49,242 nt of DNA, from the IMG/VR virus record IMGVR_UViG_2690316195_000003, one strand, 5' to 3'. Positions 1 through 36,251 of the stretch are shown here, in pieces. Within the stretch, counting starts at the first letter, position 1. Each line of letters begins with the position of its first letter. Below the pieces are notes generated by a model. The model made no database searches. It was not told the origin of the DNA and saw only the letters and a list, made by a program, of their open reading frames with translations. The position numbers and the translations under genes were made by a program. The stretch comes from a virus (taxonomy: Duplodnaviria; Heunggongvirae; Uroviricota; Caudoviricetes).

Positions 1-21
1 CTACGGTAACCCACTCTTTTG

Positions 22-67
22 TTGCCCCATTTTTGCCCCTTTTGCAGCGTTTTGCCCCATTTTTGCC
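22..67. repeat. two direct copies of TTGCCCCATTTTTGCC (22-37 and 52-67), 30 bp apart
   Basis: Exact 16-nt direct repeat read in the sequence; lies downstream of the autotransporter gene end. Confidence 0.6.
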
Positions 68-246
68 ACCGAAAAATGCGAGAATTTCTCAATCTGTAGC
101 CTGCAAATTGCGCCCATGAATTCTTTCCAAGAGAATCAGTTTCGGCTGGAAATCATTCAATACTCACACTAAAACAAAAAGCCCGCTTATGGTGGACTGC
201 AGGCTTTTAGATTCCGTGATTTAAAAACAATAGTTATAGAAACAAA

Positions 247-1533
247 TTACCAGCCTACAGCAATACCCCCTCCGATTACTGCTCCATCAGTATTATTCCA
301 TGAAGACGATGCACGAATATTGGTGTTTTCATTAAGTTTGTATTGAACACCAACAGCTACTGCATTACCGTTTCTATAGTTACCAACCCCAACGCCGGCA
401 CTAAATGTCTGGTTATTCACATACGGGATATTGGTCATTGCTGCTACGGAAGCAATACCTGCATTAGCTTTTTTAGCATTAGCTTCTATCTTATCATTCA
501 GCTGCTTAAATGTTGAATTTATCTTCCCATTAATTTGGTTAAATTTTGTATCAGTATATGCGAATGATTCTTGTTTTGCTGATTGTATGTTTTTATTAAT
601 AACACCGTTATTTTTCGTAACTTCCTGATCAGTGTATGCCATTGATTCGCTTTTGGCATTATTAATATTCTGATTTATCACAGCATTATTTTTGGTAACC
701 TGCTGATCTGTATATGCCAGTGATTCATTCTTGGCATTATTAATATTCTGATTTATTACAGCATTATTTTTGGTAACCTGCTGATCTGTATATGCCAGTG
801 ATTCATTCTTGGCATTATTGATGTTTTGATTAATTACGGTATTATTTTTAGCTATCTCATTCCCAGTATAATCTTTCAGTTGCTTAACGTTAACACCATC
901 AGTATCCTCAGTACCTGCGGCAACATGGGTCAATTGTCGATTAGTATTACCCGTCCCAAAAGATACACTATACTCTCTGTCAGTTGTACTTCCCCCGCCG
1001 ATGGCAACACTATTATTATGTTCAGCCACACTCTGTGAGCCTAGTGAGATGGCATTTTCTGCATTAGATGTAGCCCCTACACCAATAGCTAATGTATCTC
1101 CTGCAGTCGCCTGGGCGGAGGAACCAAATGCAACACTGTTTTCCCCGGTTGCTTTAGACGCAGCACCTACACTTGTAGAATTAGCGACTGCCTCACTACC
1201 CGCACCATTTGCTATAGCTGAATCACCGTTTACTTTACTAAATGAACCAATGGCTACCGAGTTATTTCCAACAACATTTGCATTTGCGCCAATAGCTGAC
1301 GATGAGTTACCTTGAGATGAAGAATATGAACCAATTGCAGTATTATAGGCTCCTTCGGTTTTTGAAACAGCGCCAATTGTTGTAGAAGAAGAACCTGAAG
1401 CATTTGCATATGCACCAATAGCTGTCGCATTACTATCAGTTGCCTGGCTATTATCACCGGCATTATAAGAATTATATGCATAAGAATTTGCTGAAACTGT
1501 AAATATAACAGAGGCTACAAATAGTTTTTTCAT
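247..1533 (-). CDS. YadA-like trimeric autotransporter adhesin (Eib-like prophage moron)
   Basis: Start moved to the internal ATG giving MKKLFVASVIFTVSANSYA (signal peptide); Ser/Ala/Asn/Gly-rich head, repeated stalk units, and a C-terminal anchor ending ...GVGNYRNGNAVAVGVQYKLNENTNIRASSSWNNTDGAVIGGGIAVGW typical of the YadA membrane anchor. Confidence 0.7.
   Translation of the reverse strand: MKKLFVASVIFTVSANSYAYNSYNAGDNSQATDSNATAIGAYANASGSSSTTIGAVSKTEGAYNTAIGSYSSSQGNSSSAIGANANVVGNNSVAIGSFSKVNGDSAIANGAGSEAVANSTSVGAASKATGENSVAFGSSAQATAGDTLAIGVGATSNAENAISLGSQSVAEHNNSVAIGGGSTTDREYSVSFGTGNTNRQLTHVAAGTEDTDGVNVKQLKDYTGNEIAKNNTVINQNINNAKNESLAYTDQQVTKNNAVINQNINNAKNESLAYTDQQVTKNNAVINQNINNAKSESMAYTDQEVTKNNGVINKNIQSAKQESFAYTDTKFNQINGKINSTFKQLNDKIEANAKKANAGIASVAAMTNIPYVNNQTFSAGVGVGNYRNGNAVAVGVQYKLNENTNIRASSSWNNTDGAVIGGGIAVGW
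538..855. repeat. tandem coding repeats of about 78 bp (3 good copies plus 1 degenerate) inside the adhesin stalk
   Basis: Near-identical units ctgatctgtatatgccagtgattcattcttggcattattaatattctgatttattacagcattatttttggtaac; encode repeated AYTDQQVTKNNAVINQNINNAKNESL. Confidence 0.75.
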
Positions 1534-2329
1534 AGAAATGACGTATGTTAAATAGATTGAAAAGATAAGATTCAAATCAATTAAATGACGCTTTAAAAAT
1601 AAGCGGCAGGATTTTATTCATCTGATAAAAATAGCGCAAGAGTTGTCTTATATGGAATATTCAGATAAGTCTTATTGAAAAAAACGGTATAACAAATACA
1701 TAACATTACGGCCATTATACATACATTATAAAAATTACAGAGATATTTAATTAAATCCAAAGCATTTTTTCAATATGGATTTCGAAGAACTTGTTATAGT
1801 ACATTAATCAATCAATTATTGGTATTTCGCTCACTGTTCATATAGTTTTAATACATCAATGCATAAGAACATTTTCTCATTCATAAAAGCGATAAAAACT
1901 GTTGTACCTTATATTGTTAATGTTTGGTAACAAAGACAAATCCAACAAGGCATTGATCATCCCCTATGATACCCATAGAAAGAATTATCTGACATATAAT
2001 AACGATATAAAGTATATTATTGCTAATGAAACTATATGATAGCTTCACATTCAGCAATACCTGCTCAACCTTATCTCTGGAAATGAACATTGCTAACTTT
2101 CCTACTCCTTAATCGTTCTCCCAGAGCGCATCATCCACACCGACAATCCCCTCAGGCATCAGCCAGGTGACATTTTCCGCTAATGGGCTGGTTCAGAGAT
2201 AAATAGTGCGTCCCCGGAAGCCAAGTCAAAGAGCATTTTTCCCCTGTGACCTTCAACGGCTACTTACTGTTTAAAAACAGCTACGATGCCAGCATAGATA
2301 CTCTTGAATACGATGTACTACGTTTTTTC

Positions 2330-3062
2330 TTATTCTGGACTGAACTCCCTAACCTGCTTCAAATCCAGGAGATTGCTCAGTTCCTCTTTCATTTCACGCT
2401 GATGACGATAAATCTCATTATTGCGATCAACCTGCGCCATAGCTGCAGCCAGCTCCTCCAGTTCCGTCATCGACAGTTTCACCTGCTGATTATCAGCATC
2501 ACTCCATGTCATAACGTCCCACTGCCCTGAGTTAGCCCCTGCAGCCATTACCACCGGGTAAAGGCGGGCCAGCGAGTCGGGGCCGCCATTCCAGGTGTGT
2601 CCGTTCCATTCGAATGTGAACGGCTGCGCTTCCTGTTCTGTGCGCCACACCTCGATTTCCCGCTTTCTGGCATCCTTTCCCACGGCGATAAGTTCTGGCG
2701 TGACGGTGAACGCAGGGCTGTCCAGTGGCGCTTTTGTTTTCGTCTCGTCCATGACGGTTTTGACAGCCTTTGGCGTGGCTGCCAGTACTTCGCTGTCGTT
2801 GTCTGTATCACTACAGAGTTGCGCCAGACCTTTTTTGTCGTGGAAGCATTGCTTCCCTTCAGATCATCAACTATCCATTGCGCCTCGTCCCTGTGCTGTT
2901 TCGCGCTCTGCTGCGCCTGCACCACAGTTTCCTGTCACCACGTCGGCAACTGTGCGCATCACACCTCTGAGGTGTTTACCCGGGATTTCAGAGTTATGTG
3001 GCATCCGTACATGGGGATGCCTGCGCCATCAATCAGCGCACCTGATATCACTACAGACATAG
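2330..3062 (-). pseudogene. side tail fiber (lambda Stf / stfR-like) remnant, truncated and frameshifted
   Basis: Minus-strand ATG at 3060 encodes MSVVISGALIDGAGIPMYGCHITLK (Stf-like N-terminus) then a stop after 33 codons; in another frame the conserved tail-fiber motif KGLAQL...LAATPKAVKTVMDETKTKAPLDSPAFT appears, continuing into the 140-aa ORF 2330..2752. Confidence 0.5.
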
Positions 3063-3083
3063 TTTTTCTCGCGATAAATTAAA

Positions 3084-3629
3084 TCAGGAAGAGGCTTCCA
3101 GAGAGACGGGCCATTCAATGGCGTTATATGAGGATTTATCAGTGATGGTGCTGAAATCCATCGCCTGCAGCGATTTCGCGTAAATGCGGTACGCTTTCAG
3201 CTTCTCCCTGTCGTCGTCACTGATTAATCCCAGCAGCAGGTCTTTTTCCCATTCGCTGGTCATGATGCTGACCCGTTGTAACAGGGCATCGCGCTCATCT
3301 TCCGCTTTAAGTTTGTAGTCGAAGACAAATTTATCGTCGCGGTAAAACCAGTAACCAGGCACGGTAATACGGCGGTTAGCGGTAATATCAGGAACTTCAA
3401 TAACACTGGCGTTACGGGGTTCAATGCCTGTCACATCCTTACCGACCCATACCACGCGCCCGTCTCCGGTGTAAACCATTTTTATGGTGTCACTGGCAAA
3501 ATTTTTCAGCTCTTCATACCAGTTTTGGTCATCTTCCGAAAAAAGCCAGGTGATACCATGTTGTTTTGTCATCTGATATTGTTCTGCGGTTTTCGGATTG
3601 CCTGCAGTAATATTTTTTAAATGCAACAT
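3084..3629 (-). CDS. tail fiber assembly protein (P2 gpG / Tfa family)
   Basis: N-terminus MLHLKNITAGNPKTAEQYQMTK...NWYEE...VIEVPDITANRR matches the Tfa signature; immediately downstream of the tail fiber gene. Confidence 0.8.
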   Translation of the reverse strand: MLHLKNITAGNPKTAEQYQMTKQHGITWLFSEDDQNWYEELKNFASDTIKMVYTGDGRVVWVGKDVTGIEPRNASVIEVPDITANRRITVPGYWFYRDDKFVFDYKLKAEDERDALLQRVSIMTSEWEKDLLLGLISDDDREKLKAYRIYAKSLQAMDFSTITDKSSYNAIEWPVSLEASS

Positions 3630-3631
3630 TG

Positions 3632-5185
3632 TTAAACACTCGCCACGTTATACCAGGTGCCGTTAATCAGTTTCTGAAGCGGTCGGTAATACACGCCGTT
3701 GACGTTATCCGCTGAATTTTTACCAGTATCCGATATCGATATCCCTGACAATCCGTGTCCCGCAGGAGCGTGATATGTCCAAGAGATTACATTGCTGCCA
3801 GGTTTGTAATACATTTCGGAACCATAGCGCACATCCTGCACGCCGCCATTTCGCTGCTGATAACGGGCATCGAAATTTCCATAGTTTGATGGGGTCATCT
3901 GTCCGTTTACAGCGAATGTGATACTGCCATCGGTATTTCTCTGGCTGTAAAAATGCCAGCCGGAATCATCACCAAGCTCTGCAACTACAGGTCGGGATGA
4001 ATTACCCCATAAATTAAACGTTGCGTTTTTCGTGGAGTTGTTGGCGCTGGATAACGTGAATTTTTTAGCATTTCCGGCCTGAATATTTTTTAACGCTATC
4101 GCCACACCATTCTGGAAACGAAATACATGCTGTCCATTCGCATAAACATCCAGAATGCCGTCGCCGTTTTGTTTTATACCTGTATCGTTATCCCCGAAAG
4201 CAATTGAGTTTCCGCCCAGCGCGTTCTGAACGCCGATACCCAGTGCACCATTGACCTGAGAACCACCGCCAACAGACACTTTATGCGACATGGATATCTC
4301 TCCTGTCCGCAAATTAATGGTGAGCGGACGCAGGGGACCAATATCTCCATTCTCGCCCTGACCTTCACTAGTAGGGATAAGGTGCAGGCACTCTTCAGAA
4401 CGGCGAAAAATAAGGCCAAAAGCCTCGTTAAAAATCCTCAATGCATTAACACCACGTATTTTCAGCTCCCCGGTCATCAAATCACCAGATTTTTTTACAT
4501 ATCGCAGATCAAAATCTGAATAGATATTGCCGGGGTTTATCACACTGAAATAGCTTTTCTCGCTATCAAGAAGGCAAATCAAAGGAATACCCTTAATGAT
4601 ATCATTCGCTACCAGCTCGGACTTGTTCCCCTTATAAAGTGGGAACGTACCAAGAACCTTTCCGCCTAGTGTTAGTTGAAGTGTCGCCGCGTTGGTATTG
4701 TTCTGAACGGGGAAAACTATAATCGGGGTTCGTAGCGTCCAATCTGTACCTCCATTAACAAAAAACGTCGAGGGAAGTTCCAGCGTCAGTGCGTTTGCAG
4801 TGCCACCAGTAACACCCGCAATATAATGACCGCTCTGAAGCTGCGCTATCTGTACGAAATAGTTTTCCGAACCACGCGTGGCAAAGTTAGCCACAACATC
4901 ATTAAGGGACCAACCTTTCGCGGTTGTTCCTTCCTGCCCACGAATGACTTTCAACACATCACCGCTTACCGATACCAAGTGACAAATCTCAAATGCAGAC
5001 TCTTTATTATCGGTAAGCGTAATTTTTGCATAGACGCGTTGCCCGTTCGATTTATTTTCAAAATCGGCAGAAAGCAATTTTGCAAATTTAGCCCCTGTAC
5101 CGGGCATTACCGGAATATCAGTCTGAATCGTGGTGATATCACCAGCCAGTGCTGAAACAACGTTATTGCCGAACCCAAGAATCAT
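3632..5185 (-). CDS. tail fiber protein with P2 gpH-like C-terminal domain
   Basis: C-terminal ~200 aa (NALGGNSIAFGDNDTGIKQNGDGILDVYANGQHVFRFQNGVAIALKNIQAG...YRPLQKLINGTWYNVASV) closely resembles the P2 H receptor-binding region. Confidence 0.85.
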   Translation of the reverse strand: MILGFGNNVVSALAGDITTIQTDIPVMPGTGAKFAKLLSADFENKSNGQRVYAKITLTDNKESAFEICHLVSVSGDVLKVIRGQEGTTAKGWSLNDVVANFATRGSENYFVQIAQLQSGHYIAGVTGGTANALTLELPSTFFVNGGTDWTLRTPIIVFPVQNNTNAATLQLTLGGKVLGTFPLYKGNKSELVANDIIKGIPLICLLDSEKSYFSVINPGNIYSDFDLRYVKKSGDLMTGELKIRGVNALRIFNEAFGLIFRRSEECLHLIPTSEGQGENGDIGPLRPLTINLRTGEISMSHKVSVGGGSQVNGALGIGVQNALGGNSIAFGDNDTGIKQNGDGILDVYANGQHVFRFQNGVAIALKNIQAGNAKKFTLSSANNSTKNATFNLWGNSSRPVVAELGDDSGWHFYSQRNTDGSITFAVNGQMTPSNYGNFDARYQQRNGGVQDVRYGSEMYYKPGSNVISWTYHAPAGHGLSGISISDTGKNSADNVNGVYYRPLQKLINGTWYNVASV

Positions 5186-5808
5186 TTTTGAATCACCGTT
5201 GTTGCATAAGAATAAATAAAAGGGAGTTTTACATATTTCTGGTCAATGGCATCTTTCAGAAAATAGCCTATACCATCACCATATTCTGGTATATGAATAG
5301 AAAAAACACTGTCCGACACAGTCACGCTCACATCAAAAGTGTGCTGCAACGGCGGGTCTATTCCGTTTTTCCCATGAATGAACCGTGCCACACGGCGCTT
5401 TAACCAGTCAATGCAGAAATGCGAACCGTCAGCCTTATAAAAATTCCAAGTTAATATTCGCTTGAAATAATCATCCGGAACATACGATGCCTGCCCCGGA
5501 ACATAATTCCGCATTGCCGCATAAGGGATTGTATTGTATTCAATGGTATCGTATGCGCCGCGTGCAATAGCCTCCTCGGAAACCTGTAGTAAAGGCCTTT
5601 CAACGCCATAAATCCCGAGAGCAATCCAGTCCAGCAATTGCCCGGTTATTGATTCCGATGTCCAGCATGGCAATGCCAGATTGTTGAGTGAATCGAGGTA
5701 TTCCTGAGCAATTTCATTGTATGCATCAAAGAACGCAACAACATTCGGATCATCTCTGTACTGCACAAACGGATAAGCAGGGAGAATTTTTTCAGTCAGA
5801 TATTGCAT
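5182..5808 (-). CDS. tail/baseplate protein (P2 gpI-position)
   Basis: ORF between the baseplate J-like gene and the tail fiber; start placed at the internal ATG (MQYLTEK) to limit overlap; start uncertain. Confidence 0.45.
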   Translation of the reverse strand: MQYLTEKILPAYPFVQYRDDPNVVAFFDAYNEIAQEYLDSLNNLALPCWTSESITGQLLDWIALGIYGVERPLLQVSEEAIARGAYDTIEYNTIPYAAMRNYVPGQASYVPDDYFKRILTWNFYKADGSHFCIDWLKRRVARFIHGKNGIDPPLQHTFDVSVTVSDSVFSIHIPEYGDGIGYFLKDAIDQKYVKLPFIYSYATTVIQK

Positions 5809-7018
5809 ACTTGTTAACTTGAACCTGTGATGCCACTGTCGAAAAATAGGAATAGGTATCGCCATAAACCAGGCTTGTGTCTTTTGCCGGAAGAACAATA
5901 TGACCATTAATGCCAATGCTCACACTGATTGTTGAGATCAACGTCGCATCAACCAGCAACCTGACAGAACTGGTAAAAATATCCTGGATACGCAGAAGAT
6001 TTATCGGGTGTCCGACTTCAATTGAATTGATGTAATCAGCAACGTTTTGCTGCACAGCCATAGCAATACCCGCCGGATCAACATAATCATCAGACACCGT
6101 GTTCCAGGTGATTAGCACCATGACGTTTTGTGATGACGGGATAACGAACGGCACCTGATAAACGTCCGGCGAAACGGTTATTGAAACCGTGCGTTTTTCC
6201 ACTGCCGCACCGGATGGATTGCTTACATCGTTGGTCAGTTTCGAAATATCCGGTACAGATTTGTAAATCGCATAAGCCACATCATACGGATCACCGCCAC
6301 CAACAACCGCAACCCATTTCCCCAGCGACGACTGCCGGAAAGAAATCAGGTTTTCTCGCACACCGCTTACTGATTTGAGCATCGCTTTATAGCAATCCGG
6401 TGTTCCCTGCACACCAAACATACCGGACTCCATGACTTCGGCGCGGTAAGATGCCCACGTCTGCGCCTCCTGACCTGGCATCCCTGCGGTAAGGTTCGTG
6501 CATTTTACAGGCTGGTCTTTTGGTACTGAGGTAATAACCTGCGTCACAGTCCCTTCCGGTACAGCCCATGAGCCTGACGTTGTGGCCACACAGTAGACTG
6601 GTTCAGTCTGCCCACTTTCCGGCACCACCGTATCGCGGGAAACTGCATACTGGTAGTTGCCATCACCGACAACAAATCCTTTAGGGATACCAAACCCCGG
6701 CAACGCCTCAAATACCACGTATACCGCCGTATTTGTACTTAATCCCTTCTGTGCTCCATAAATGTTTCCGAGTTGCATCAGTAACGGAATATTTGCGCCG
6801 TATGGGCTTACGGAGTTAATAAGGTCCACCCGCGCCTGGTCTATTAATGCCAGCGCCCCGACTGCCGTGCTGGCAAGGTCAGTAATAAGCCCCGCCGGAA
6901 GGTTGGCTGTATATCCAGGTACTTTTTCAGCAACTCTGATGATAAGATTTGCAAGCAAATCATTGGGTGGCGTAGGCTGCGCCCCCGCACTGGTCATAGT
7001 AATTGGTATTTCTGACAT
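5792..7018 (-). CDS. baseplate J-like protein
   Basis: 408-aa protein in the baseplate-wedge position upstream of the tail fiber; GGAG ribosome-binding site before the ATG at 7018. Confidence 0.6.
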   Translation of the reverse strand: MSEIPITMTSAGAQPTPPNDLLANLIIRVAEKVPGYTANLPAGLITDLASTAVGALALIDQARVDLINSVSPYGANIPLLMQLGNIYGAQKGLSTNTAVYVVFEALPGFGIPKGFVVGDGNYQYAVSRDTVVPESGQTEPVYCVATTSGSWAVPEGTVTQVITSVPKDQPVKCTNLTAGMPGQEAQTWASYRAEVMESGMFGVQGTPDCYKAMLKSVSGVRENLISFRQSSLGKWVAVVGGGDPYDVAYAIYKSVPDISKLTNDVSNPSGAAVEKRTVSITVSPDVYQVPFVIPSSQNVMVLITWNTVSDDYVDPAGIAMAVQQNVADYINSIEVGHPINLLRIQDIFTSSVRLLVDATLISTISVSIGINGHIVLPAKDTSLVYGDTYSYFSTVASQVQVNKYAISD

Positions 7019-7030
7019 ATTTACTCCATT

Positions 7031-7056
7031 AAAAAACCCGCTTTCGCGGGTTTTTT
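7031..7056. terminator. bidirectional rho-independent terminator-like hairpin
   Basis: aaaaaacccgc-tttc-gcgggtttttt: GC stem with A-run upstream and T-run downstream; sits between the stop of the nuclease-like moron and the start of the J-like gene. Confidence 0.6.
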
Positions 7057-7058
7057 AC

Positions 7059-8234
7059 TTATTCAACCTCTTCTAAACTGCTCACTCTGGACCCTCGGCG
7101 GAAATTATCATCATTTTTAACATACTCGTATGAATCCAGAATCAAACCAGATATGCGAAGTATATCTTCCGGATTAGTTATATGTATCCTTTTACCATCC
7201 GTATCAAGTCGAGCTCGTCTTATTTCATTCAACTGAACTTCACTAAGCGAAATAGGTAAAGTTATAAATGAAGATTTTTTATCATAAAATCTTAACAGCC
7301 ATCTATTAGTTTTACCATTCAATAGCACACCAAAATATGACTCAGTATCTTTATATTCTATATTATCTTCTGTTTGTATGATTTGTTTTACCCTTTCAAA
7401 TAGCTCCAATTCTTTGGCTGTGGTTATTATGTTGGGGTTTTCTTCATCAACAATGGCGTTATTAACTTGTGTATCCGTTGCATCATTTTCTTTAGTTTGC
7501 TCTACCGGTTGTGTAGATAGCCCGGAAACCACCATTGCGCTAACAGCGCGCTCAACGGCCTGTTTAACTAATGGAGTCACGAACTCAAGAAATCTCTGAT
7601 TAAGTTGTCTCTCAATATTTGAACGACTAGCAACATATCGAACAAACTCCAGATCAACTTCACGAAGACTAGAACTGATTGTTTTAGTAAATGAATTCAA
7701 ATAAACACTTTCTTCAGCCAGTGTCCGTAAAGCCTCTGGTTTGAATTTATCATAACGAAAACGAAATAATTGTGTAATATCGGAGTGAGTTAGAGAATCC
7801 ATTCTTATTTTTAAAAACGGCGTTGAATCCATTATGTTTTTTTGTTTCAAATCCGTAAAAAAACGCCATTCAACACCATTTGTAATGGCTGATATAGTAA
7901 CTTCCGGTGTTGAATTAAAATATCTTGATAGCTGTGGGCAGTGATTATCAATTTGTTCTGAAAACGATTTCGCCTCAATGAACATCACAGGAACATCATG
8001 ACAAAATAAAGCGTAATCAACCCGTTCATTAGCCTTAACCCCGGGGAAGTCAGCACTATACTCAGCTTTGACTTTTCTTGGATCATACGGAGTAAAACCA
8101 AGAATATCTAGTAATGGCATAATGAGTGCTTGTTTTGTCGTTTCTTCAGTTGTACAAAACACCCCCATTTTTGCAACATGCTCTGTGTGTATTTTTAACT
8201 TATTTGCAAAATTTTCCATGCTTGTCTCCTCCAT
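7059..8234 (-). CDS. PD-(D/E)xK nuclease-like protein (type I restriction HsdR N-terminal-like domain) with uncharacterised C-terminal half
   Basis: N-terminal region ...TKQALIMPLLDILGF...ERVDYALF...VMFIEAKSF... fits the D...(D/E)xK catalytic core; visibly AT-rich relative to flanking tail genes; strong ribosome-binding site ggaggagacaag before the ATG; own terminator. Confidence 0.55.
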   Translation of the reverse strand: MEETSMENFANKLKIHTEHVAKMGVFCTTEETTKQALIMPLLDILGFTPYDPRKVKAEYSADFPGVKANERVDYALFCHDVPVMFIEAKSFSEQIDNHCPQLSRYFNSTPEVTISAITNGVEWRFFTDLKQKNIMDSTPFLKIRMDSLTHSDITQLFRFRYDKFKPEALRTLAEESVYLNSFTKTISSSLREVDLEFVRYVASRSNIERQLNQRFLEFVTPLVKQAVERAVSAMVVSGLSTQPVEQTKENDATDTQVNNAIVDEENPNIITTAKELELFERVKQIIQTEDNIEYKDTESYFGVLLNGKTNRWLLRFYDKKSSFITLPISLSEVQLNEIRRARLDTDGKRIHITNPEDILRISGLILDSYEYVKNDDNFRRGSRVSSLEEVE

Positions 8235-9712: not shown

Positions 9713-10719
9713 TACACCCTCGCCCAGTTCTCAGCATATGCCTCAAATACCGTCACCCAGGCATCGCCATCGGCTGTCAGATACGAACCAATGTGTCTGA
9801 CTGATTTCACAAGAAATTTCCCGGTGAACGTGGTCGAATTTTTTGCGATAACGCTGGGTACCGTTGTATTAGCCATCACAATCGACGCAGCGCCAGAATA
9901 TAGCCCCTCCGGCAGTTTAACCACATCACCACATCTGATATCGCCTCTCATAGGGCATTTGAAACTGACGGTAAACGGCGCTATCCATGTCGGCTGCCCG
10001 ACCAGTTCATGGGCATGAATTGTTTTTGGCTCACCCCACTTTGCCGATGCGTTATCGTAGATTCGTATTCTGTCGGAAAGAATACTGATGGCGATTCCGC
10101 TATACCTTTCATTACGCATCATCGCAATAGAGGCGTTTTTTACGACCATAGCCAGCGAACCAATCTCCGTATATTTGCCCGTCCACGGCTCTGGCAAAAC
10201 CAGGTTGTCGCTGACTGTGCAATCAATAAGTTTATTGGGATATGCTTTTTGCAAAGCGCGGACTAAAACATCACCCACCCTTTCCCCTGCTTCCCCCTGC
10301 CCCTCAATTGAAAAAGGGTTACCGTCATCGGTTTTGCGTATGCTTGGATTTATTACCAGGTTTAAAGTCTGGTTCGTGCCGATCCAGTTGGCATAGGCCA
10401 GATAAATTTCACCATAGATTACCTCCCCCTGTTGATCCTTATTTGCCAGTGGTAACCCCTGAACAAAGCCTGCTTTCATACGTACCAGACAACCCTGCAA
10501 ACTTACGCTTTGCTTCAGCATGTCAATTGGTAATCCATAGATCGTCAGCATCGTACCCGAACAGACTACATCCAGGCCGGTTACTTCAAAGTCAAATTCA
10601 ACATGCAACCCACATCCTGGTGTTTCATTGGTATCAAAAGGTCCAATGGGTTTTCCATTGCTATCCACTGGCGGCTTGCCTGTTTTAGGATTAATAATTT
10701 CCAGTCGGTAATAACGCAT
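9712..10719 (-). CDS. phage tail / baseplate hub-like protein
   Basis: 335-aa ORF immediately upstream of the spike gene (stop/start overlap at 9712). Confidence 0.45.
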   Translation of the reverse strand: MRYYRLEIINPKTGKPPVDSNGKPIGPFDTNETPGCGLHVEFDFEVTGLDVVCSGTMLTIYGLPIDMLKQSVSLQGCLVRMKAGFVQGLPLANKDQQGEVIYGEIYLAYANWIGTNQTLNLVINPSIRKTDDGNPFSIEGQGEAGERVGDVLVRALQKAYPNKLIDCTVSDNLVLPEPWTGKYTEIGSLAMVVKNASIAMMRNERYSGIAISILSDRIRIYDNASAKWGEPKTIHAHELVGQPTWIAPFTVSFKCPMRGDIRCGDVVKLPEGLYSGAASIVMANTTVPSVIAKNSTTFTGKFLVKSVRHIGSYLTADGDAWVTVFEAYAENWARV

Positions 10720-10985
10720 TACGAAACCTCAAACTGATTCGTACTTTCGCGAAAAACAAGTTTCCCCGGAGAGCAAGGCAGCGCCAGATTGATGTCGTAA
10801 CTGTCAGGTGACGCGATCAAAGGCATGTATACAATCACGTCGCCTGAACTGTCTTTCAGTTCCAGGTAGTAACGATTTGCATACAGATTAAACGGAACGC
10901 GGGCGAATGTTTCATATTCTCCGATTCTGGCAGTGAACTGAAATGGTCCTCGCCCGTCAGGTTTGAAAGGAATTAACGTTGTCAT
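10719..10985 (-). CDS. phage tail protein, small
   Basis: 88-aa ORF translationally coupled to neighbours. Confidence 0.35.
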   Translation of the reverse strand: MTTLIPFKPDGRGPFQFTARIGEYETFARVPFNLYANRYYLELKDSSGDVIVYMPLIASPDSYDINLALPCSPGKLVFRESTNQFEVS

Positions 10986-11650
10986 AAGCCAAAACCAAAC
11001 TCCTGCACGACCTGGTTCTTAATACCTGACCACGATAGCGCCCCGTATGACGGCATCCCTTTATCAAATTTATCCAGAACGCTCGCCAGCGTTTTTACCG
11101 TTTGTTCGACAGACGACAATGGTTGCTCAAACTCAATCTGCCAGGTGTGCTGAACCTGCTTGTTCTGCTCAGAGAAACCGGATGTATCGATAAACGACCG
11201 CATCAGACAGCGCGTGTAGATGAAAGATGGCGTCATTACGGTGTAACAACCGCCATACTGGTTATGCATATCGAGCGCCATTTTCAGCGCCGTGAATGTC
11301 ATCCCCTTAGTGATGTAGCCACCGTCCTCCGTTGATGCCGGACGGATCATCTGCATGACTACCCGGTTAGGCTTCTTGACGGTCGCATTCGCTGCCGTTA
11401 CCTGGTTATAGAAATTCAGGTTGCAAATATCCTGCTGAACCAACGTTGTCCCCGCCATCGGGGTAAATGCCGCCATCGAGCGTGTACGAATCTCGCCATG
11501 CAGCAGACCGTTCACAATGCTTAGGCCTTCGGTCAAAACAGCAATCGGCATCACCCCGCCGGGAATTTTCGACGCTATGCCATCAACTAAAAGAATGGGC
11601 GATACTTCAAACGCCAGTTTGAAAGCTTGTCCAAAGTAATTAAGTGACAT
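10982..11650 (-). CDS. phage tail assembly protein
   Basis: 222-aa ORF directly downstream of the tape measure gene. Confidence 0.4.
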   Translation of the reverse strand: MSLNYFGQAFKLAFEVSPILLVDGIASKIPGGVMPIAVLTEGLSIVNGLLHGEIRTRSMAAFTPMAGTTLVQQDICNLNFYNQVTAANATVKKPNRVVMQMIRPASTEDGGYITKGMTFTALKMALDMHNQYGGCYTVMTPSFIYTRCLMRSFIDTSGFSEQNKQVQHTWQIEFEQPLSSVEQTVKTLASVLDKFDKGMPSYGALSWSGIKNQVVQEFGFGL

Positions 11651-11653
11651 GGT

Positions 11654-13732
11654 TTACCCCGGTATTTGTTGCATTCCGGCGAGTTGTGCCAGTATGTCGG
11701 AACCTGGTTTTTGTTGAACGTCGAGCCTGATTACCTGAGAAGTATTATTTGGTGAATATACCTTCCCCCGGTTCATTGCCAGCGCCCGCATCACATCATC
11801 GCCACTTACTGCACGAGCGGCGTCCCCATTTTCATGGTTAATAATGCCCTGAATTAGCTTTCTCATTATCTCAAAATTAGAACCATCGATTTTCTCCTTA
11901 ACACCTAATCCAGTGTACTGAGAGAGATAGCTTTTATAGGACGATGTGTTATTTCCATCAGATGAAGGGGCATAAATATCAATAATCTGATCAATCGTAT
12001 TTTTGCCGCGTTTCAGGTATAGCATTACTTGCCGATCTAAGGCAGCAATGCCTTCCAGCATCGTCGGGAAGCTGGCAAAACGGGCATTTGGCCCCGATTC
12101 CAGGGTAGCCCCTTTTTGTCCTGCGAAATTAAGATTTCCGGGATTGTTATTCCTGATCCCTCTGGATAAATATGCAGATCTGTTTACTTGATTTGAAAAT
12201 CCCTGCAATCCTCCAGGCCAGACCTTACCCGGATTGTTTTTTTGCCACTCCTGCACTTCGTTAAAATAATCAAAGTTGAAACGCCCCTCCAGCCCTTTCA
12301 TTTCCTCACTGGTGGTAGGTGTGTCATTTGTAGGAATAGCCAATCCAGCTACTGTTCCGGCTGTAGCCCCAAGAAGACTTCCACCAACAACACGGGCGGC
12401 AACTCCGGTCGTTGTGGCTGCCACAGCACCAACTCTCGATGGTCCAGCAAGTACTGCGGCCCCAAAAAGCCAGGGATGTTCAACCGCAAAACCAACAAAC
12501 CCGCTAAGTGCCTTAACAACCTTTGCAACATTTTCGGCAAAATTATTCAGGTCGTTATTAAAATGCGGGCCATTTACATACTTACCAAGTTTATCCAGAC
12601 CTGTTTCAACATCAGTCAAAATTCTTTTAAAGTTCTCACCGTTAAGGAAATTTAGACCAGCATTCTTTACACCATTAGATATTCTAATTAGCTGTACAGA
12701 GTTACCCGACATTGCCCCCTGAAATCCGCTGGTAAGTTGATCCCAGTTATTTTCTAAGTTGCTGGTAAGATTCTGATACTGGCTTGTATGTCCAGAGGTG
12801 AGCAACGAGTCATTCTGAGAAGCTCGCGATAAAAACTCTTTGTTGAGTTCAGGTATTTTGTCCTGATATTTGACTAACTGGTTAGCAATACCAAAATTTA
12901 CCCATCCAAGGCCACGACCTCTGAGCATGCTCTGAGTAAGTCCGGTTCCCTCATACTCCTTTGCAAGAGCAGCAACTCTTTCTAACAATACAGGAAGATT
13001 TTCTGCTGCCCCTTTTTTAGGATTTATCCCTAATCCAATTAGCCCGTTGTAGGCAGGATGCTGAGTGTCATTTTGCGCGGCTGCCAGTGTATTGAGCAAA
13101 TTACCAACACCGGAAAAATAAGGCGAATAAGTGCTTTCTGCCGCCTTTAGCTCTCCTGGCGTTGCCTGCAATTCATCAGCATTTTTCTGTTTCTCTACAA
13201 CATTACGAGCCATCATGCCAAAGCCAAACGGCCCGGCAACGCCCATAACCGCAAGTTTTGTCCCCCACGATACGGTGGTTTTAAACAGGTTGTTTAATCT
13301 CGAAGTGGTCGTCCGTAGCGTAGAATTGATCTGCTTGTAAGTTTTCAGCGTCTGTTTGGCTTTTTTCCCCAGCCCGCTGAGGTACTTATCAAACATCGTT
13401 TCGCCGCGACCTTTATAGTTGCTCACCAGCGAATCAGGTGTTTTCCCGCTGCCAACAAAGCGCCATTTTTCATCCCTTAAACGTCCATCAGTGGAAGCAG
13501 CCAGAACTGGCGCGGGTGAAGATGGTTTCCTGGGAGCCTGATTGGCTTCTCCGCCTGTGGTTGTCTGCCAAGAGCCACCTCCCGGACCTGTATTTGAAGG
13601 TATTTTAAGCGGCGTACCGGCAGGGCCAATCATCAGTCCGTTGCGATACTTTTCAAATATCGCCTCAAGCCGCCTGAGGTGTTCTTCATTAACATCCAGC
13701 GTCAGAACTGGCATCTGGTTACCAGCCATCAC
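11654..13732 (-). CDS. tail tape measure protein
   Basis: 692 aa; Gly/Ala-rich hydrophobic segments (e.g. GAAVLAGPSRVGAVAATTTGVAARVVGGSLLGATAGTVAGLAIP); located after the sheath/tube/chaperone genes. Confidence 0.6.
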   Translation of the reverse strand: MMAGNQMPVLTLDVNEEHLRRLEAIFEKYRNGLMIGPAGTPLKIPSNTGPGGGSWQTTTGGEANQAPRKPSSPAPVLAASTDGRLRDEKWRFVGSGKTPDSLVSNYKGRGETMFDKYLSGLGKKAKQTLKTYKQINSTLRTTTSRLNNLFKTTVSWGTKLAVMGVAGPFGFGMMARNVVEKQKNADELQATPGELKAAESTYSPYFSGVGNLLNTLAAAQNDTQHPAYNGLIGLGINPKKGAAENLPVLLERVAALAKEYEGTGLTQSMLRGRGLGWVNFGIANQLVKYQDKIPELNKEFLSRASQNDSLLTSGHTSQYQNLTSNLENNWDQLTSGFQGAMSGNSVQLIRISNGVKNAGLNFLNGENFKRILTDVETGLDKLGKYVNGPHFNNDLNNFAENVAKVVKALSGFVGFAVEHPWLFGAAVLAGPSRVGAVAATTTGVAARVVGGSLLGATAGTVAGLAIPTNDTPTTSEEMKGLEGRFNFDYFNEVQEWQKNNPGKVWPGGLQGFSNQVNRSAYLSRGIRNNNPGNLNFAGQKGATLESGPNARFASFPTMLEGIAALDRQVMLYLKRGKNTIDQIIDIYAPSSDGNNTSSYKSYLSQYTGLGVKEKIDGSNFEIMRKLIQGIINHENGDAARAVSGDDVMRALAMNRGKVYSPNNTSQVIRLDVQQKPGSDILAQLAGMQQIPG

Positions 13733-26136: not shown

Positions 26137-26388
26137 TTAGTCCTGATTTTTATCCACCCTGAGTAGTTCACGCAGGGCAAAGGCATCCCCTTTTCTGGCA
26201 AGCTTAAACAATGCCGCCCGTAGTTCGGCTTCACCTTTCGCTCTGCCCTTACGGATGGATGCGTAAAAATCTGTCATTGCTTCCCGATTTTCTTTCAGTC
26301 GGTTCAGATCAACATCCAGAACGTCAGCGATTTGTTGTGCAGTCATCCGGCACGCTGCCAGAGACTCGACTTTCGAATACGGAATCAT
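26137..26388 (-). CDS. hypothetical small protein
   Basis: 83-aa ORF, stop 4 bp from the terminase small subunit start. Confidence 0.3.
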   Translation of the reverse strand: MIPYSKVESLAACRMTAQQIADVLDVDLNRLKENREAMTDFYASIRKGRAKGEAELRAALFKLARKGDAFALRELLRVDKNQD

Positions 26389-27274
26389 TTGTCACCCCCA
26401 TTGATATGCAGGGTGTCTTCTTCCTGTATTTTTCGTGAAGGATTTTTACTGCAGCGTTGTTCCAAGTGACCTGATGGTGAATGCGTTTATGGCTGGCCCC
26501 CATCAGTGAGATTTTTACGCACGAGGGCGCATACATGACGGAGTAAAAACTTTTAACGTAGGTTCCGGAATCCAGATACAGCTCGGTCATTCCGCCGCTG
26601 TTTTTCTGCGTCTGTTTCTGCCCTAACTGGACAGCACCGATCGTCATAAACAATTCACCACAGCGACCGAGATTCGTGTACGTATTCACATCCTCGTTAA
26701 TGCGCCCCATGAATGAGAACGGTCGATCAACCGAACAGATAAAGCTGTTCATTGCCTTGCGTTTCACCCACGAAGCATGGCCGCCATTGTCACCAAGAAA
26801 ATCCCCGCCCTGCGACATAGCGATGGAAAGCGCAGGTATTGATTCGTAGTACGCCAGCATTTCAGAAAGGATCGCATCCAGTTTTCTTATCGGGAAATAG
26901 GCCTGGTCATAGTTGCGATCCACCCGAAACTGGAACTCGTGATAATCATCATCGAGCTGAATGAAGTATTTACACCCGACCAGTTTTGCCAGGTCGAAAC
27001 AGGCATTACGGGCGTAAAAAATTGAGCGGCGATCACCGAAATTATCGGCTTCGTCAAAACGACTGGCTATATCGGCTTTGGAAAACACCAGCACCTGTTC
27101 ACCAAATTCAACTATGTACTGATGCCGTGTCTTATCTTCATCATCAACAACGATAAAAATTTTCCCGGTATAGCCAGCACGACGCAACGTCCGGTAAGTC
27201 AGAACTTTGTCCGGTCGCCCGTGAGTCAGAATAAAGGCGCAAAAATCATCACGCATATTCCTCCTCCCCGCCAT
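26324..27274 (-). CDS. hypothetical protein, possible GT-A-like transferase (DxD motif)
   Basis: IFIVVDDEDK and KYFIQLDDDYHEF motifs resemble the nucleotide-binding and DxD motifs of GT-A fold transferases; assignment tentative. Confidence 0.35.
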   Translation of the reverse strand: MAGRRNMRDDFCAFILTHGRPDKVLTYRTLRRAGYTGKIFIVVDDEDKTRHQYIVEFGEQVLVFSKADIASRFDEADNFGDRRSIFYARNACFDLAKLVGCKYFIQLDDDYHEFQFRVDRNYDQAYFPIRKLDAILSEMLAYYESIPALSIAMSQGGDFLGDNGGHASWVKRKAMNSFICSVDRPFSFMGRINEDVNTYTNLGRCGELFMTIGAVQLGQKQTQKNSGGMTELYLDSGTYVKSFYSVMYAPSCVKISLMGASHKRIHHQVTWNNAAVKILHEKYRKKTPCISMGVTNDSVFESRVSGSVPDDCTTNR

Positions 27275-28037
27275 GCATGATCTCCACCATGTGCTGCGTC
27301 ATCCGGACAAATCCATTTTCAATAGCCTGCTGATAATCAATGATCACCAGCGCCGACTCCTCAAAAAGGCGCTGAATTTCAGCGGGGGCGTGAGCGTAAT
27401 AATCCGCAATTCTGCTGAAATTAAACACCGTGTGGCGTTCTGCCGCGCACAGGAGGAATTTTTCGATATCAGGCTCAAGGGACGCCGAACGTATCCGGCT
27501 GATCAGCTCCTGAGTTTTCGTATCGTCGTACAGTTCACTGATATCCGGTTTATCGCCCGACGGCTCATAAACAGGCGTATCAATTTTCGTCGTATACTGC
27601 TCCTCCTCATTTCCGGTACCTGGCAAAACTTCCATCAACAGTTCATCAATTTCTGTTGGGCTGAATCCTGTCAGGGAGATATCAAAATCAGCATTGATTA
27701 GCTCCGACAGTTCCACCCGTAACAGTTCTTCATCCCAGCCAGCGTTGAGCGGCAGGCGATTATCTGCCAGGCGGTACGCCTTTTTCTGATCATCCGTCAG
27801 GCCAGACAGAACAATGACCGGAACAGAATCCATTTTGAGCACCTCAGCCGCCATCACGCGACCGTGACCAGCAATAATTTCGCCCTTTTCGTCAATCAGC
27901 ACCGGATTGGTCCAGCCGAATTGCTTAATGCTTTCTACCAGTTGTGCCACCTGCTCAGGGCTGTGTGTCCTGGCGTTGTGCGCATACGGAGACAGTTTTT
28001 GCAACGGGCGATAGACGATCTTCAATTTCTCGCTCAT
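27249..28037 (-). CDS. ParB-like nuclease domain protein
   Basis: N-terminus ...LSPYAHNARTHSPEQVAQLVESIKQFGWTNPVLIDEKGEIIAGHGRVMAA matches the ParB/Srx N-terminal domain including the GxGR-type motif. Confidence 0.7.
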   Translation of the reverse strand: MSEKLKIVYRPLQKLSPYAHNARTHSPEQVAQLVESIKQFGWTNPVLIDEKGEIIAGHGRVMAAEVLKMDSVPVIVLSGLTDDQKKAYRLADNRLPLNAGWDEELLRVELSELINADFDISLTGFSPTEIDELLMEVLPGTGNEEEQYTTKIDTPVYEPSGDKPDISELYDDTKTQELISRIRSASLEPDIEKFLLCAAERHTVFNFSRIADYYAHAPAEIQRLFEESALVIIDYQQAIENGFVRMTQHMVEIMHGGEEEYA

Positions 28038-30041: not shown

Positions 30042-30785
30042 TTATTCTTGAGTAACACTTAAACTCATCTCATTGAATGCAGCCATCCTGTAACCTGCCG
30101 GTGTAACACCAAAATAACTCCTGAATACGCTGATAAAATAAGATGTAAAATTATAGCCGCACTGAGCAGCGATTCTGTTGATGGCGCAACGAGATTGATT
30201 CAACAGCATTGCTGCCATTCTCATTCTCTCTGTAAGCAACAACTCACTGAAACAGGTGCCTTCTTCTTTCAGTCTTTTTTTTAACAAACTTTCACTGATA
30301 CATAACCGCGAAGACACATCTCTCAGAGTCCAGTTTGCTGCAATGTCCGTACGAAACAATGCACTAAGCCTGTCACTAATATTGCTAATACACGCGGTCA
30401 GAAACGACGAAAACATCTTCTCTGATGAGAAAAACGCCAGACACGAAAAGGAAAGCATTTCCGCTAAATTGTCCGTATGAATCTTTTCCTCACAAAGATA
30501 ATCAATCAGGATGCCCATCAATTCTGCCTTCGGAAAACTCACGCAAAGATATCGTGGTATTTGCCGGACTAAAACTACATCCTGTTTTTCGTCTCCACAC
30601 AACAGGTAACGGCTAATTGTCGATTCACTGAGACTTATTCGCCGAAAACATTCCGAAAAGGGCAATAACGATCCAGCTCCCCCCCTGACAAGAAGTGCAC
30701 TACCACTTTCAAGAGAGAGCTCTTTTCCTTCAAAGAGCACAACAAACGGGGAATGAACAAAAACAACAGAACAGGCTTCATTCAT
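30042..30785 (-). CDS. AraC-family transcriptional regulator (prophage moron)
   Basis: C-terminal AraC-type helix-turn-helix region (WTLRDVSSRLCISESLLKKRLKEEG...INRIAAQCGYNFTSYFISVFRSYFGVTPAGYR); start placed at MNEACSVVF; sits between the Q-dependent terminator and the holin. Confidence 0.8.
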   Translation of the reverse strand: MNEACSVVFVHSPFVVLFEGKELSLESGSALLVRGGAGSLLPFSECFRRISLSESTISRYLLCGDEKQDVVLVRQIPRYLCVSFPKAELMGILIDYLCEEKIHTDNLAEMLSFSCLAFFSSEKMFSSFLTACISNISDRLSALFRTDIAANWTLRDVSSRLCISESLLKKRLKEEGTCFSELLLTERMRMAAMLLNQSRCAINRIAAQCGYNFTSYFISVFRSYFGVTPAGYRMAAFNEMSLSVTQE

Positions 30786-30905
30786 ATCAATTGCCCTGAC
30801 ATTACTGGTCACAAGATAAGTATATATCGATTTACAAAAATACAAGCCGAAAGACCAGTATTCGCAACCACCAGCACGTTTTATGTTCTCTGCCGTTTTT
30901 CGGAC

Positions 30906-30931
30906 ATAAAAAACCCGCTCAATGGCGGGTT
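30906..30931 (-). terminator. tR-prime-like intrinsic terminator downstream of Q
   Basis: Minus-strand hairpin aacccgcc-attga-gcgggtt followed by a T-run; located between the Q-like gene stop and the late genes. Confidence 0.45.
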
Positions 30932-31014
30932 GTATCAAAGTTCATGCGCTTGGTTCACCTCGCGATACAGCTTTGCGAAGCTTAGCAAAATTGAAGCGGT
31001 TTATGCGTAAAAAA

Positions 31015-35122: not shown

Positions 35123-36251
35123 ATGCTCCTGACTCCTTCAGAATGTTTGAAATTACTCTTGATGTAAGTTTGTACAAATTAGCAAGAACTCTGATAGAAA
35201 ATAATTTTTTATCTTTAGAACGTAACCAACGAATTTCATCTTCGTAAGTGCTTAAATTTACACCTTCCATAAGCGATTGAGCAAGATACAAACGCCTATA
35301 CAATTTATGGTGATTTATCACACTTGCACCTTCAATAACTGCATCCCTACGTGCATCCAAGCTCACCTGTTCAATTATTGCTCCGGATAATCCTTCCGAT
35401 TTTCTTGATAAATCACTTAAATCTAGATCGCTACATATCATATTCTTTAAACGATTTTTCCAAATTAACTCTCTCTGATGTATGTCAGGCAGAGGCATTG
35501 GAATTCTGAAGCTAAATCGCCTCCAGATTGCAGGATCCAGAAGTTGCTCATGGTTAGTTGAGGCAATAATTACCGTATCCTCTGATGCCGCATCCATATT
35601 CTGCAATAGTGAAATGACAACTCGCTGAAGCTCACCTATATCTCTCTCATTACCTCTTGCTCCAGCTAAAGCATCAAATTCGTCTAAAAAAAGCACTGAT
35701 GGCCTCTGCATTACATAATCGAAAACCTGTCTAAGATTTTTGCTGGTTTGTCCCAATAAACTACTAATCAAAGTATCGCAACGCACTGTAAGAAGTGGAA
35801 AATCTAAGCGGGTAGCGATGTACTTAGATAACATAGTCTTACCTGTTCCTGGCTTTCCATACACGAGCATACGACTCGGCAATGCTGCATCAGCTTTAAC
35901 AAACTCATCATAACGTTGAACATTAGTGATAAACTCTTCAACACGGGTACTGATTGCTGCAGGCAGAAAAATCTCTGAACTGTCTAATTTAGGATAACTG
36001 ACATCAACAGTGTTGAGTCGACTATCAATATCTACCGGTAATGAGCCCAGAGATATCCCACCTCCAGCCCTTTGAGCTCCTGCCAACGCCTGGGGAGCTC
36101 TAAGCAACCTTTCTCTTATCATTCTGGCTTGCTTGACCTCCCCTTTTTGTTCGAGCTTATCTGCCAGCAACCCAGCATAATTACTAGCCATCGAAGCATT
36201 TGCCTTTGTTGCACCTTCAATGATTTTTAACACTTCTGATAAATAATCCAT
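35097..36251 (-). CDS. classical AAA+ ATPase
   Basis: Walker A YGKPGTGKTML, Walker B VLFLDEFDAL, and sensor / second region of homology IIASTNHEQLLDPAIWRRFSF; 26-bp overlap with the downstream protease gene indicates an operon. Confidence 0.85.
   Translation of the reverse strand: MDYLSEVLKIIEGATKANASMASNYAGLLADKLEQKGEVKQARMIRERLLRAPQALAGAQRAGGGISLGSLPVDIDSRLNTVDVSYPKLDSSEIFLPAAISTRVEEFITNVQRYDEFVKADAALPSRMLVYGKPGTGKTMLSKYIATRLDFPLLTVRCDTLISSLLGQTSKNLRQVFDYVMQRPSVLFLDEFDALAGARGNERDIGELQRVVISLLQNMDAASEDTVIIASTNHEQLLDPAIWRRFSFRIPMPLPDIHQRELIWKNRLKNMICSDLDLSDLSRKSEGLSGAIIEQVSLDARRDAVIEGASVINHHKLYRRLYLAQSLMEGVNLSTYEDEIRWLRSKDKKLFSIRVLANLYKLTSRVISNILKESGAYEQKGYTV

Follow-up and report, generated by a model that had tools for sequence, protein, structure and literature searches.

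A predicted YadA-type trimeric autotransporter adhesin with a stalk of variable repeat number at the attR end of an Escherichia coli prophage of the Rac family

Several lineages of trimeric autotransporter adhesins (TAAs) have been described that resemble the gene considered here. The Eib proteins of Escherichia coli (EibA, C, D, E, F, G and H) are prophage-borne, are encoded downstream of tail-fibre and DUF4376 genes, and follow a lollipop plan of head, neck, stalk and anchor. Saa, the autoagglutinating adhesin of E. coli that produces Shiga toxin (STEC), is encoded on plasmid pO113, and YadA of Yersinia on pYV. In a 2026 study, Kotaka et al. (PMC13534694) set apart from Eib the related ClaA and ClaB lineages and the "Yal" (function unknown adhesin-like) clades; the latter have neither the saddle nor the N-terminal domain of Eib and are distinct from both Eib and Cla. 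Here we describe a gene at positions 247–1533, minus strand, of a viral DNA of 49,242 nucleotides (IMG/VR record IMGVR_UViG_2690316195_000003; hereafter the window), which is E. coli DNA and constitutes a Rac-family prophage. In our opinion, this gene probably encodes an intact, functional, prophage-borne type Vc adhesin of the YadA type, with a stalk that varies in length. A search of the literature in full text found no paper that joins a trimeric autotransporter with the Rac prophage, and none on YadA-like adhesins behind the tail-fibre genes of E. coli prophages.

Architecture of the adhesin and its relation to described TAAs

The open reading frame (ORF) is complete, runs from ATG to a TAA stop codon and specifies 428 amino acids; its RefSeq name is "YadA-like family protein." The copy in strain A2 (WP_077782794.1) is identical to window positions 229–1567 at the DNA level (100.0%). 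Three Pfam models pass their gathering scores, namely YadA_head (E 1.1e-16, in five stretches), YadA_stalk (residues 200–241) and YadA_anchor (residues 373–427). For the YadA-type anchor model, PF03895, the score is 32.3 bits (cutoff 22.7), and the NCBIfam YadA model gives the 428-residue protein 112 bits against a cutoff of 750. Among solved structures, the YadA head of Yersinia, which binds collagen, gives the best sequence match (1p9h, E 8.3e-22); the anchors of YadA and AtaA were also matched in sequence searches of the PDB.

The domains follow one another in the order typical of the class. The signal peptide (1477–1533, minus strand, as are all parts of the gene) comprises residues 1–19, MKKLFVASVIFTVSANSYA, and was assigned by inspection: MKKLFVASVIFTVSANSYA|YN, with which the protein begins, shows the n-h-c arrangement expected for Sec export, with MKK, a hydrophobic core and SYA|Y. 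It is followed by a YadA-like left-handed β-roll head of 12 turns of 14 residues each (964–1476; residues 20–190), which is indicated by Pfam, the 1p9h match and the structure model, and by a neck with the segment ..SFGTGNTNRQLTHVAAGTEDTDGVNV.. (889–963; residues 191–215), placed by the YadA_stalk match and the alignment with 1p9h. The stalk is a coiled coil, modelled as one uninterrupted α-helix of 152 residues (433–888; residues 216–367). The membrane anchor (250–432; residues 368–428) has four β-strands and ends in ..AVGW; Pfam, the model and Foldseek agree on it.

The AlphaFold2 model was computed for the monomer from an alignment of 30 sequences, with a mean predicted local distance difference test score (pLDDT) of 82. 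Residues 1–19 are disordered in it (pLDDT <50), and head, neck, the helix 216–367 and four strands within 377–426 come next; the 12 β-roll turns repeat at an exact 14-residue spacing over residues 23–178, with pLDDT 88–98. Foldseek searches of the PDB with this model returned TAA heads (BpaC, BoaA, YadA, CbpF, EibD, AtaA and UspA1) and TAA anchors (AtaA, Hia and YadA) exclusively. The head ranking is topped by BpaC, BoaA and YadA, and the anchors of AtaA, Hia and YadA are matched with TM-scores of 0.74–0.85, normalised to the target. The protein has the parts by which a TAA is recognised: a four-strand anchor with a terminal aromatic residue, a Sec signal peptide (by inspection) and a head-neck-stalk passenger that leads into the anchor. 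A first-pass annotation of this DNA, made from the letters alone, had proposed a YadA-type trimeric autotransporter with a signal peptide and a C-terminal anchor and had asked for a profile search on the latter. Pfam, 1p9h, AlphaFold2 and Foldseek all uphold that proposal, and the coordinates and description were accurate; the sole correction concerns the strand, which is minus.

If the protein behaves as others of its class do, the 19-residue signal peptide would direct it to the periplasm through Sec, and three C-terminal four-strand segments would assemble into a 12-strand barrel in the outer membrane. The passenger would then exit through the barrel and be displayed on the surface as a trimeric lollipop, in which the 12-turn β-roll head is carried on the neck and on a coiled-coil stalk of ~150 residues, where it could meet its presumed ligand. 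The proximal part of the stalk would be a right-handed coiled coil of 26-residue YxD units, and the distal part would lead into the anchor. By analogy with the class, a lysogen may gain adhesion, autoaggregation and possibly serum resistance; we put the chance that these are its roles at about even or slightly better.

YadA is similar to the adhesin in several respects: the order of domains is identical, the head is the one matched by the best structural hit, and both proteins have a right-handed YxD stalk and a four-strand anchor. The neck motif, NRQLTH.AAGT.DTD.VNV.QLK, is nearly identical. The two proteins differ in the head, which shares ~33% identity over the structurally aligned region and has 12 turns in the adhesin, and in the stalk, whose unit is 26 residues long (11 + 15) in the adhesin whereas YadA has pentadecads. 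They also differ in genomic location, a prophage as opposed to pYV.

The first-pass annotation had also likened the protein to Eib, and part of that comparison stands. The prophage position is of the same kind: the gene directly upstream of eibE in phage P-EibE, ORF-191E, encodes a DUF4376 protein 33% identical to the product of window 2330–2752, and the complete phage PhiR12_3 carries an 88%-identical Eib-like gene after its tail-fibre genes. The common head-neck-stalk-anchor plan, a weak match to EibD (2xqh, E 1.7e-5), which is driven by the head, and the ninth place of EibD in the Foldseek head ranking point in the same direction. These likenesses could mean that the adhesin is a member of the Eib family, with a coiled-coil stalk that binds IgG Fc or IgA non-immunologically. 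Family membership, however, was not borne out by the alignment that the annotation had called for. The adhesin shares 27% identity with EibE in a heavily gapped alignment, whereas EibE matches EibD with E 3.9e-92, and a query of stalk plus anchor found neither of the EibD structures 2xqh and 2xzr, even at E<=10. The N-terminal domain of Eib (~125 residues) is absent from the adhesin, in which the head repeats begin at residue 23, right behind the signal peptide, whereas the aligned head of EibE starts at about residue 146. The saddle is absent as well: the helix 216–367 is unbroken in the model, and there is no counterpart of the TVGV.. segment of EibE and EibD. At the sequence level, no homologue of the immunoglobulin-binding stalk segment of Eib was detected. 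According to the 2026 study, proteins outside the family share <50% with Eib proteins, and ClaA and ClaB, which are related to Eib but lie outside it, do not bind IgG Fc (PMC13534694). Because of this precedent and of the missing Eib features, IgG binding by the adhesin is unlikely. We conclude from the sequence comparison and the model that it is not an Eib protein and shares with Eib a genomic niche only; the immunoglobulin-binding alternative is, in our opinion, very unlikely.

Saa is likewise an E. coli TAA, and its periodicity, ~3.7, is similar. It shares 28% identity with the adhesin, however, has a unit of 37 residues with YTN in place of YxD, and is plasmid-borne; its part N-terminal to the aligned region, which begins at about residue 180, does not resemble the adhesin head. 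By sequence, then, the adhesin is not Saa: identity, unit length and N-terminal half all differ.

The Yal clades are another matter. The adhesin model, too, has no saddle and no N-terminal domain. The 2026 study reports a Yal member on pKY178 and YalA on the chromosome of JNEC-KY180 (PMC13534694), and JNEC-KY180 carries a five-unit allele of our adhesin at the same Rac site. No closer pKY178-type copy was found in this strain among the best 40 of 198 records. For this reason, the adhesin is probably one of the Yal proteins. The plasmid-borne TAA of pKY178 differs from it, with 39% identity and 30-residue units. Relatives of the pKY178 protein are carried by many E. coli plasmids of 35–80 kb, including O157:H7 plasmids of ~37 kb. 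The pKY178 gene (12026–13354 of locus L007) comes directly behind genes for type IV secretion (conjugation); a related TAA gene of the IncI plasmid pRHB39-C22_3 (62% identical) comes directly before such genes.

Outside Escherichia, the closest relatives are YadA-like proteins of Proteus columbae and P. penneri (53–59% identity), which agree with the adhesin in head, neck and anchor. Their genes, like that of the adhesin, are low in GC; the stalks differ, the P. columbae unit of 41 residues being equal to a 26-residue unit plus a pentadecad and P. penneri having a single unit. Taken with the low GC content of the adhesin gene itself, the Proteus relatives suggest that it was acquired from a low-GC enterobacterial donor. 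P. columbae has three TAA-sized ORFs in a row (4995–6377, 6647–8020 and 9806–11131 of locus L024), of which the first encodes the 53%-identical homologue with 41-residue repeats.

Repeat units of the stalk and their variation in number

Four tandem units of 78 bp, each encoding 26 residues, occupy positions 538–849 on the minus strand. They are referred to as u1 (772–849), u2 (694–771), u3 (616–693) and u4 (538–615). Tandem Repeats Finder reports a period of 78 with 3.1 copies and 90% matches at 608–849. At the DNA level, u1 and u2 are 92% identical, u2 and u3 87%, and u1 and u3 80%. Thus, of the "3-4 near-identical 78-bp repeats" initially noticed, three fit the description reasonably well, while the fourth is degenerate (~65%). 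The array is far beyond chance, since adjacent units share an exact run of 62 bp at lag 78, as opposed to a maximum of 11 bp at all other lags.

The units fit the published rules for right-handed TAA stalks. Such stalks have a periodicity of 3.7–3.83 and a YxD motif, in which Thr is the usual x, some five residues ahead of the repeat end, and they are restricted to the segment that joins the last neck to the anchor (the daTAA rule; PMC2373917); right-handed coiled coils are stabilised by YxD motifs (PMC6555100). In the adhesin, hydrophobic periodicity peaks at 3.71 residues in the repeat region, which equals 26/7, and at 3.70 in the whole stalk. Every unit contains an A-Y-T-D motif, with YTD near the C-terminal end of the unit, and the model places the array between the last neck and the anchor. 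Because periodicity, motif and position agree with these rules, the 26-residue units are predicted to encode a right-handed coiled-coil module with seven helical turns per unit. With a rise of ~1.5 Å per residue, the gain or loss of one unit would shift stalk length by ~3.9 nm while keeping both the reading frame and the register of the core.

Variation of this kind is indeed observed. Our repeat census drew on complete genomes and plasmids only. At the Rac site, three units are present in C41, four in A2 and the window, and five in JNU, KY180, A17 and NWU_4. These alleles differ from the window by 0–1 single-nucleotide polymorphisms (SNPs) in the 987 nt outside the array (684 nt preceding it and 303 nt following it). 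Since alleles of three, four and five units occur with 0–1 SNPs elsewhere in the gene, unit number in the Rac-site lineage has changed faster than point mutations have accumulated. Copies in an insertion sequence (IS)-rich island adjoining asrABC (94% protein identity) have four units in STEC309, five in 400660 and six in M24FEP, the anchor of the last being truncated by IS2. Copies on IncF plasmids (82% identity) have three units in E. albertii pEA5_1, four in pRHBSTW-00933_2 and five in pRHB07-C17_2. The island and plasmid lineages thus vary in unit number independently. The variation in related isolates that the first-pass annotation had predicted is therefore seen in silico, over a range of three to six units. 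Saa, whose stalk consists of tandem repeats differing in number among strains (PMC4060028), provides a precedent for it among E. coli TAAs.

All repeat changes that we observed involve whole in-frame units, and the variation is one of stalk length, not of on/off phase. Each allele size was found in more than one independent complete assembly; it is therefore unlikely that assembly error is the source of the differences. Exact look-ups of seven alleles in a large protein database matched no entry. BLAST matches confined to 550–2400 had raised the possibility of a mosaic 3′ end and anchor; direct alignment shows that JNU simply has one extra unit, and the apparent mosaic is an artefact of the repeats.

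As to mechanism, slippage or unequal recombination between 78-bp units, whose exact identity extends over as much as 62 bp, would add or remove whole units. That three allele sizes occur with no other difference in the gene has led us to consider a more far-reaching possibility, in which the stalk is a fast, reversible length dial. Single-unit changes by slippage or recombination would be more frequent than point mutations; lysogens would retune how far the strongly conserved head projects past O-antigen or capsule, and would thereby switch adhesion or aggregation without loss of the protein. The ORF-sized cassette would, moreover, stem from a donor of low GC, Proteus for example, and would have moved repeatedly among att ends of prophages, IncF plasmids and islands. 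We regard this idea as speculative and rather unlikely.

Genomic position, conservation and expression

The adhesin gene is the last gene inside the prophage, by attR and uspF. This follows from the position of the attR core, the duplicated 5′ end of ttcA that is seen in JNU, which lies outside the window, ~85–100 bp left of its position 1; the annotation of phage Rac-SA53 puts an att site at the corresponding position. In JNU, a near-identical prophage has the order uspF, adhesin, tail, head and terminase, lysis, replication, recET-kilR, xisR-intR and ttcA. Window positions 1–171 represent the attR-proximal prophage end and are 93.6% identical to Escherichia phage Rac-SA53, with homology ending at 171. 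Homology resumes in the DUF4376 gene (2330–2752), so that 172–2329 is, by comparison, inserted. The GC content of this cassette is 36.5% and that of the gene 38.5%, as against 47.2% for the window. The motif TTTGCCCC(A/T)TTT occurs three times at 22–67; the copies may be arm-type binding sites of the integrase. The same motif is found twice on the attL side of the JNU prophage, between the stop of intR and the start of ttcA (48904–48925 of locus L005).

Upstream of the adhesin, an AT-rich region (1534–2147, minus strand) presumably holds the promoter. The AT-richness noted at first reading amounts to 27.9% GC over 1534–2100, and sliding-window values upstream of the ATG are 26–30% across 1501–2100. 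Next come, all on the minus strand, a remnant of a tail-fibre-assembly gene (~2148–2257; coordinates transferred from RefSeq strain A2 and accurate to a few bases), the DUF4376 ORF (140 residues; Pfam E 2.3e-17) and fragments of an internally deleted side-tail-fibre gene (2696–3062), which were recognised by comparison with Rac-SA53 and from the RefSeq remnant "prophage tail fiber N-terminal domain." Segments 2696–2912 and 2922–3236 correspond to separated parts of Rac-SA53 tail3 (3186 nt), and the second runs on into the adjacent tail2. The intact tail-fibre-assembly gene at 3084–3629 (Caudo_TAP, E 6.3e-22) is the last structural gene of a baseplate-type tail module. The gene was thus correctly placed by the earlier annotation at the tail-fibre end of the prophage, past a decayed side-tail-fibre remnant. 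The adhesin module is combined with this baseplate-type tail in the window, JNU, A17 and KY180, and with a lambdoid gpJ-type tail in A2 and C41. Rfam had no match in window 1–3000 at E<=1.

This position raises the question of whether the adhesin serves the prophage itself, as a surface shield or means of superinfection exclusion comparable to the Cor and Llp genes that follow tail-fibre genes, or as a fibre associated with the virion. The gene does come directly after the tail-fibre genes and has the orientation of the late operon. Furthermore, "tail proteins" of lytic phages (among them Salmonella phages FSL SP-058 and SP-076, Proteus phage Privateer and Cronobacter phage vB_CsaP_009) match residues ~300–416 with 37–43% identity, a stretch that covers the distal stalk and the start of the anchor. 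Nevertheless, a Sec signal peptide and a complete anchor ending in an aromatic residue point to the bacterial outer membrane and not to the virion; ~800 bp and gene remnants separate the adhesin from the late genes; and the gene is maintained on IncF plasmids and a non-phage island, so its value does not depend on a phage. We give a role in the service of the prophage very little credence. The adhesin gene is more readily understood as a lysogenic-conversion "moron" at the attR end, which would act for the lysogen.

Conservation of the protein argues that the gene is maintained. Between lineages, dN/dS (the ratio of nonsynonymous to synonymous substitution rates) is 0.04–0.08 in the head and neck, 0.04–0.05 in the repeats and 0.03–0.07 in the distal stalk and anchor, at a dS of 0.3–2.0. 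The whole protein, including the head, is therefore under strong purifying selection, which argues against a decaying relic.

It should be noted that a number of observations weigh against an intact and functional adhesin. The trimer geometry is assumed, since the model is that of a monomer, and the 2026 naming study leaves the function of Yal unknown (PMC13534694). Neither a sigma-70 promoter nor a Shine-Dalgarno sequence could be convincingly identified for the adhesin, promoter-like sites being at the level expected from shuffled sequence. The AT-rich leader suggests H-NS silencing, and expression in lysogens is thus putative. A terminator-like hairpin at 171–208, minus strand, 39 nt past the stop codon (10-bp stem, 12-nt loop and U-rich tract), is statistically weak (minimum free energy -18 kcal/mol, z = -1.27); it coincides exactly with the end of Rac-SA53 homology. 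One island copy is truncated by IS2, and two copies are annotated as split. In the tRNA-Ser lineage, a +1 frameshift after about codon 48 splits off the signal peptide. The prophage of this lineage, which is integrated at tRNA-Ser near hyaA in RM11911 and TK3046 (3620–5010 of locus L013, and locus L014), has a five-unit adhesin just past its tail-fibre genes. The shorter head that its annotation seems to indicate is an effect of the frameshift, as RefSeq annotates the downstream 411-residue ORF alone.

Some of these observations are also what one would expect if the gene were silent or decaying cargo, acquired horizontally, silenced by H-NS and at present of no use, in which slippage changes the repeats as mere neutral noise. 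The GC-poor upstream region with no assignable promoter or Shine-Dalgarno sequence, the copies that are frameshifted, split or hit by an IS, and the rarity of the lineage would all agree with this explanation. Carriers amount to ~31 of 5426 complete E. coli genomes; cattle, other animals and environmental sources account for most of them, and some are human or STEC isolates. The low dN/dS in all domains at such high dS, however, requires that selection has acted on the protein over a long time. Moreover, the window and most copies at the Rac site, in the island and on plasmids have an intact reading frame, and repeat changes are invariably of whole in-frame units. We therefore consider silent cargo quite unlikely and prefer a maintained adhesin.

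With regard to regulation, activation of eib genes by IbrAB has been reported (in a reference cited by PMC8065619). A search of the prophage for an IbrAB-like activator found only a ParB_N-domain protein beside a TET-associated glycosyltransferase (TAGT), with no evidence linking either to the adhesin. An AraC-family helix-turn-helix regulator is encoded beside the lysis genes (30042–30938, minus strand); as a candidate, it may control cargo genes of the prophage, that of the adhesin among them.

Other prophage cargo and biological implications

The prophage carries further genes of interest. Within the baseplate genes, a low-GC islet (31–39% GC) contains a gene for a 391-residue protein with a type I restriction HSDR_N domain (7059–8234, minus strand), which looks like a second moron, within the tail module. 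The early region contains an ietAS anti-phage defence pair, as judged from PADLOC matches: 32858–35122 encodes an S8 subtilase of 753 residues (IetS, E 1.3e-300) and 35097–36251 an AAA ATPase of 383 residues (IetA, E 2.7e-142), both on the minus strand. At this position JNU has two different, unannotated genes. The TAGT gene (26324–27274, E 2.4e-34) and the ParB_N-domain gene (27249–28037) lie on the minus strand, immediately upstream of the gene for the small terminase. A further match of the ParB_N protein is to a PADLOC model of type II methyltransferases, in its N-terminal third, and the pair may be a DNA-modification module.

The adhesin is a member of a well-known class, and our findings do not overturn the current understanding of TAAs. 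The most useful new facts are the clean allelic series of three, four and five units and the strength of the purifying selection that acts on the adhesin. The niche of a prophage TAA behind tail fibres is common to unrelated TAA lineages, Eib and the adhesin described here, and a position behind tail fibres is thus no evidence of immunoglobulin binding. If the gene is expressed, E. coli lysogens of Rac-type phages gain a surface adhesin. Its alleles of three to six units, at ~3.9 nm each, would constitute a natural series on how TAA stalk length relates to adhesion, aggregation and complement resistance.

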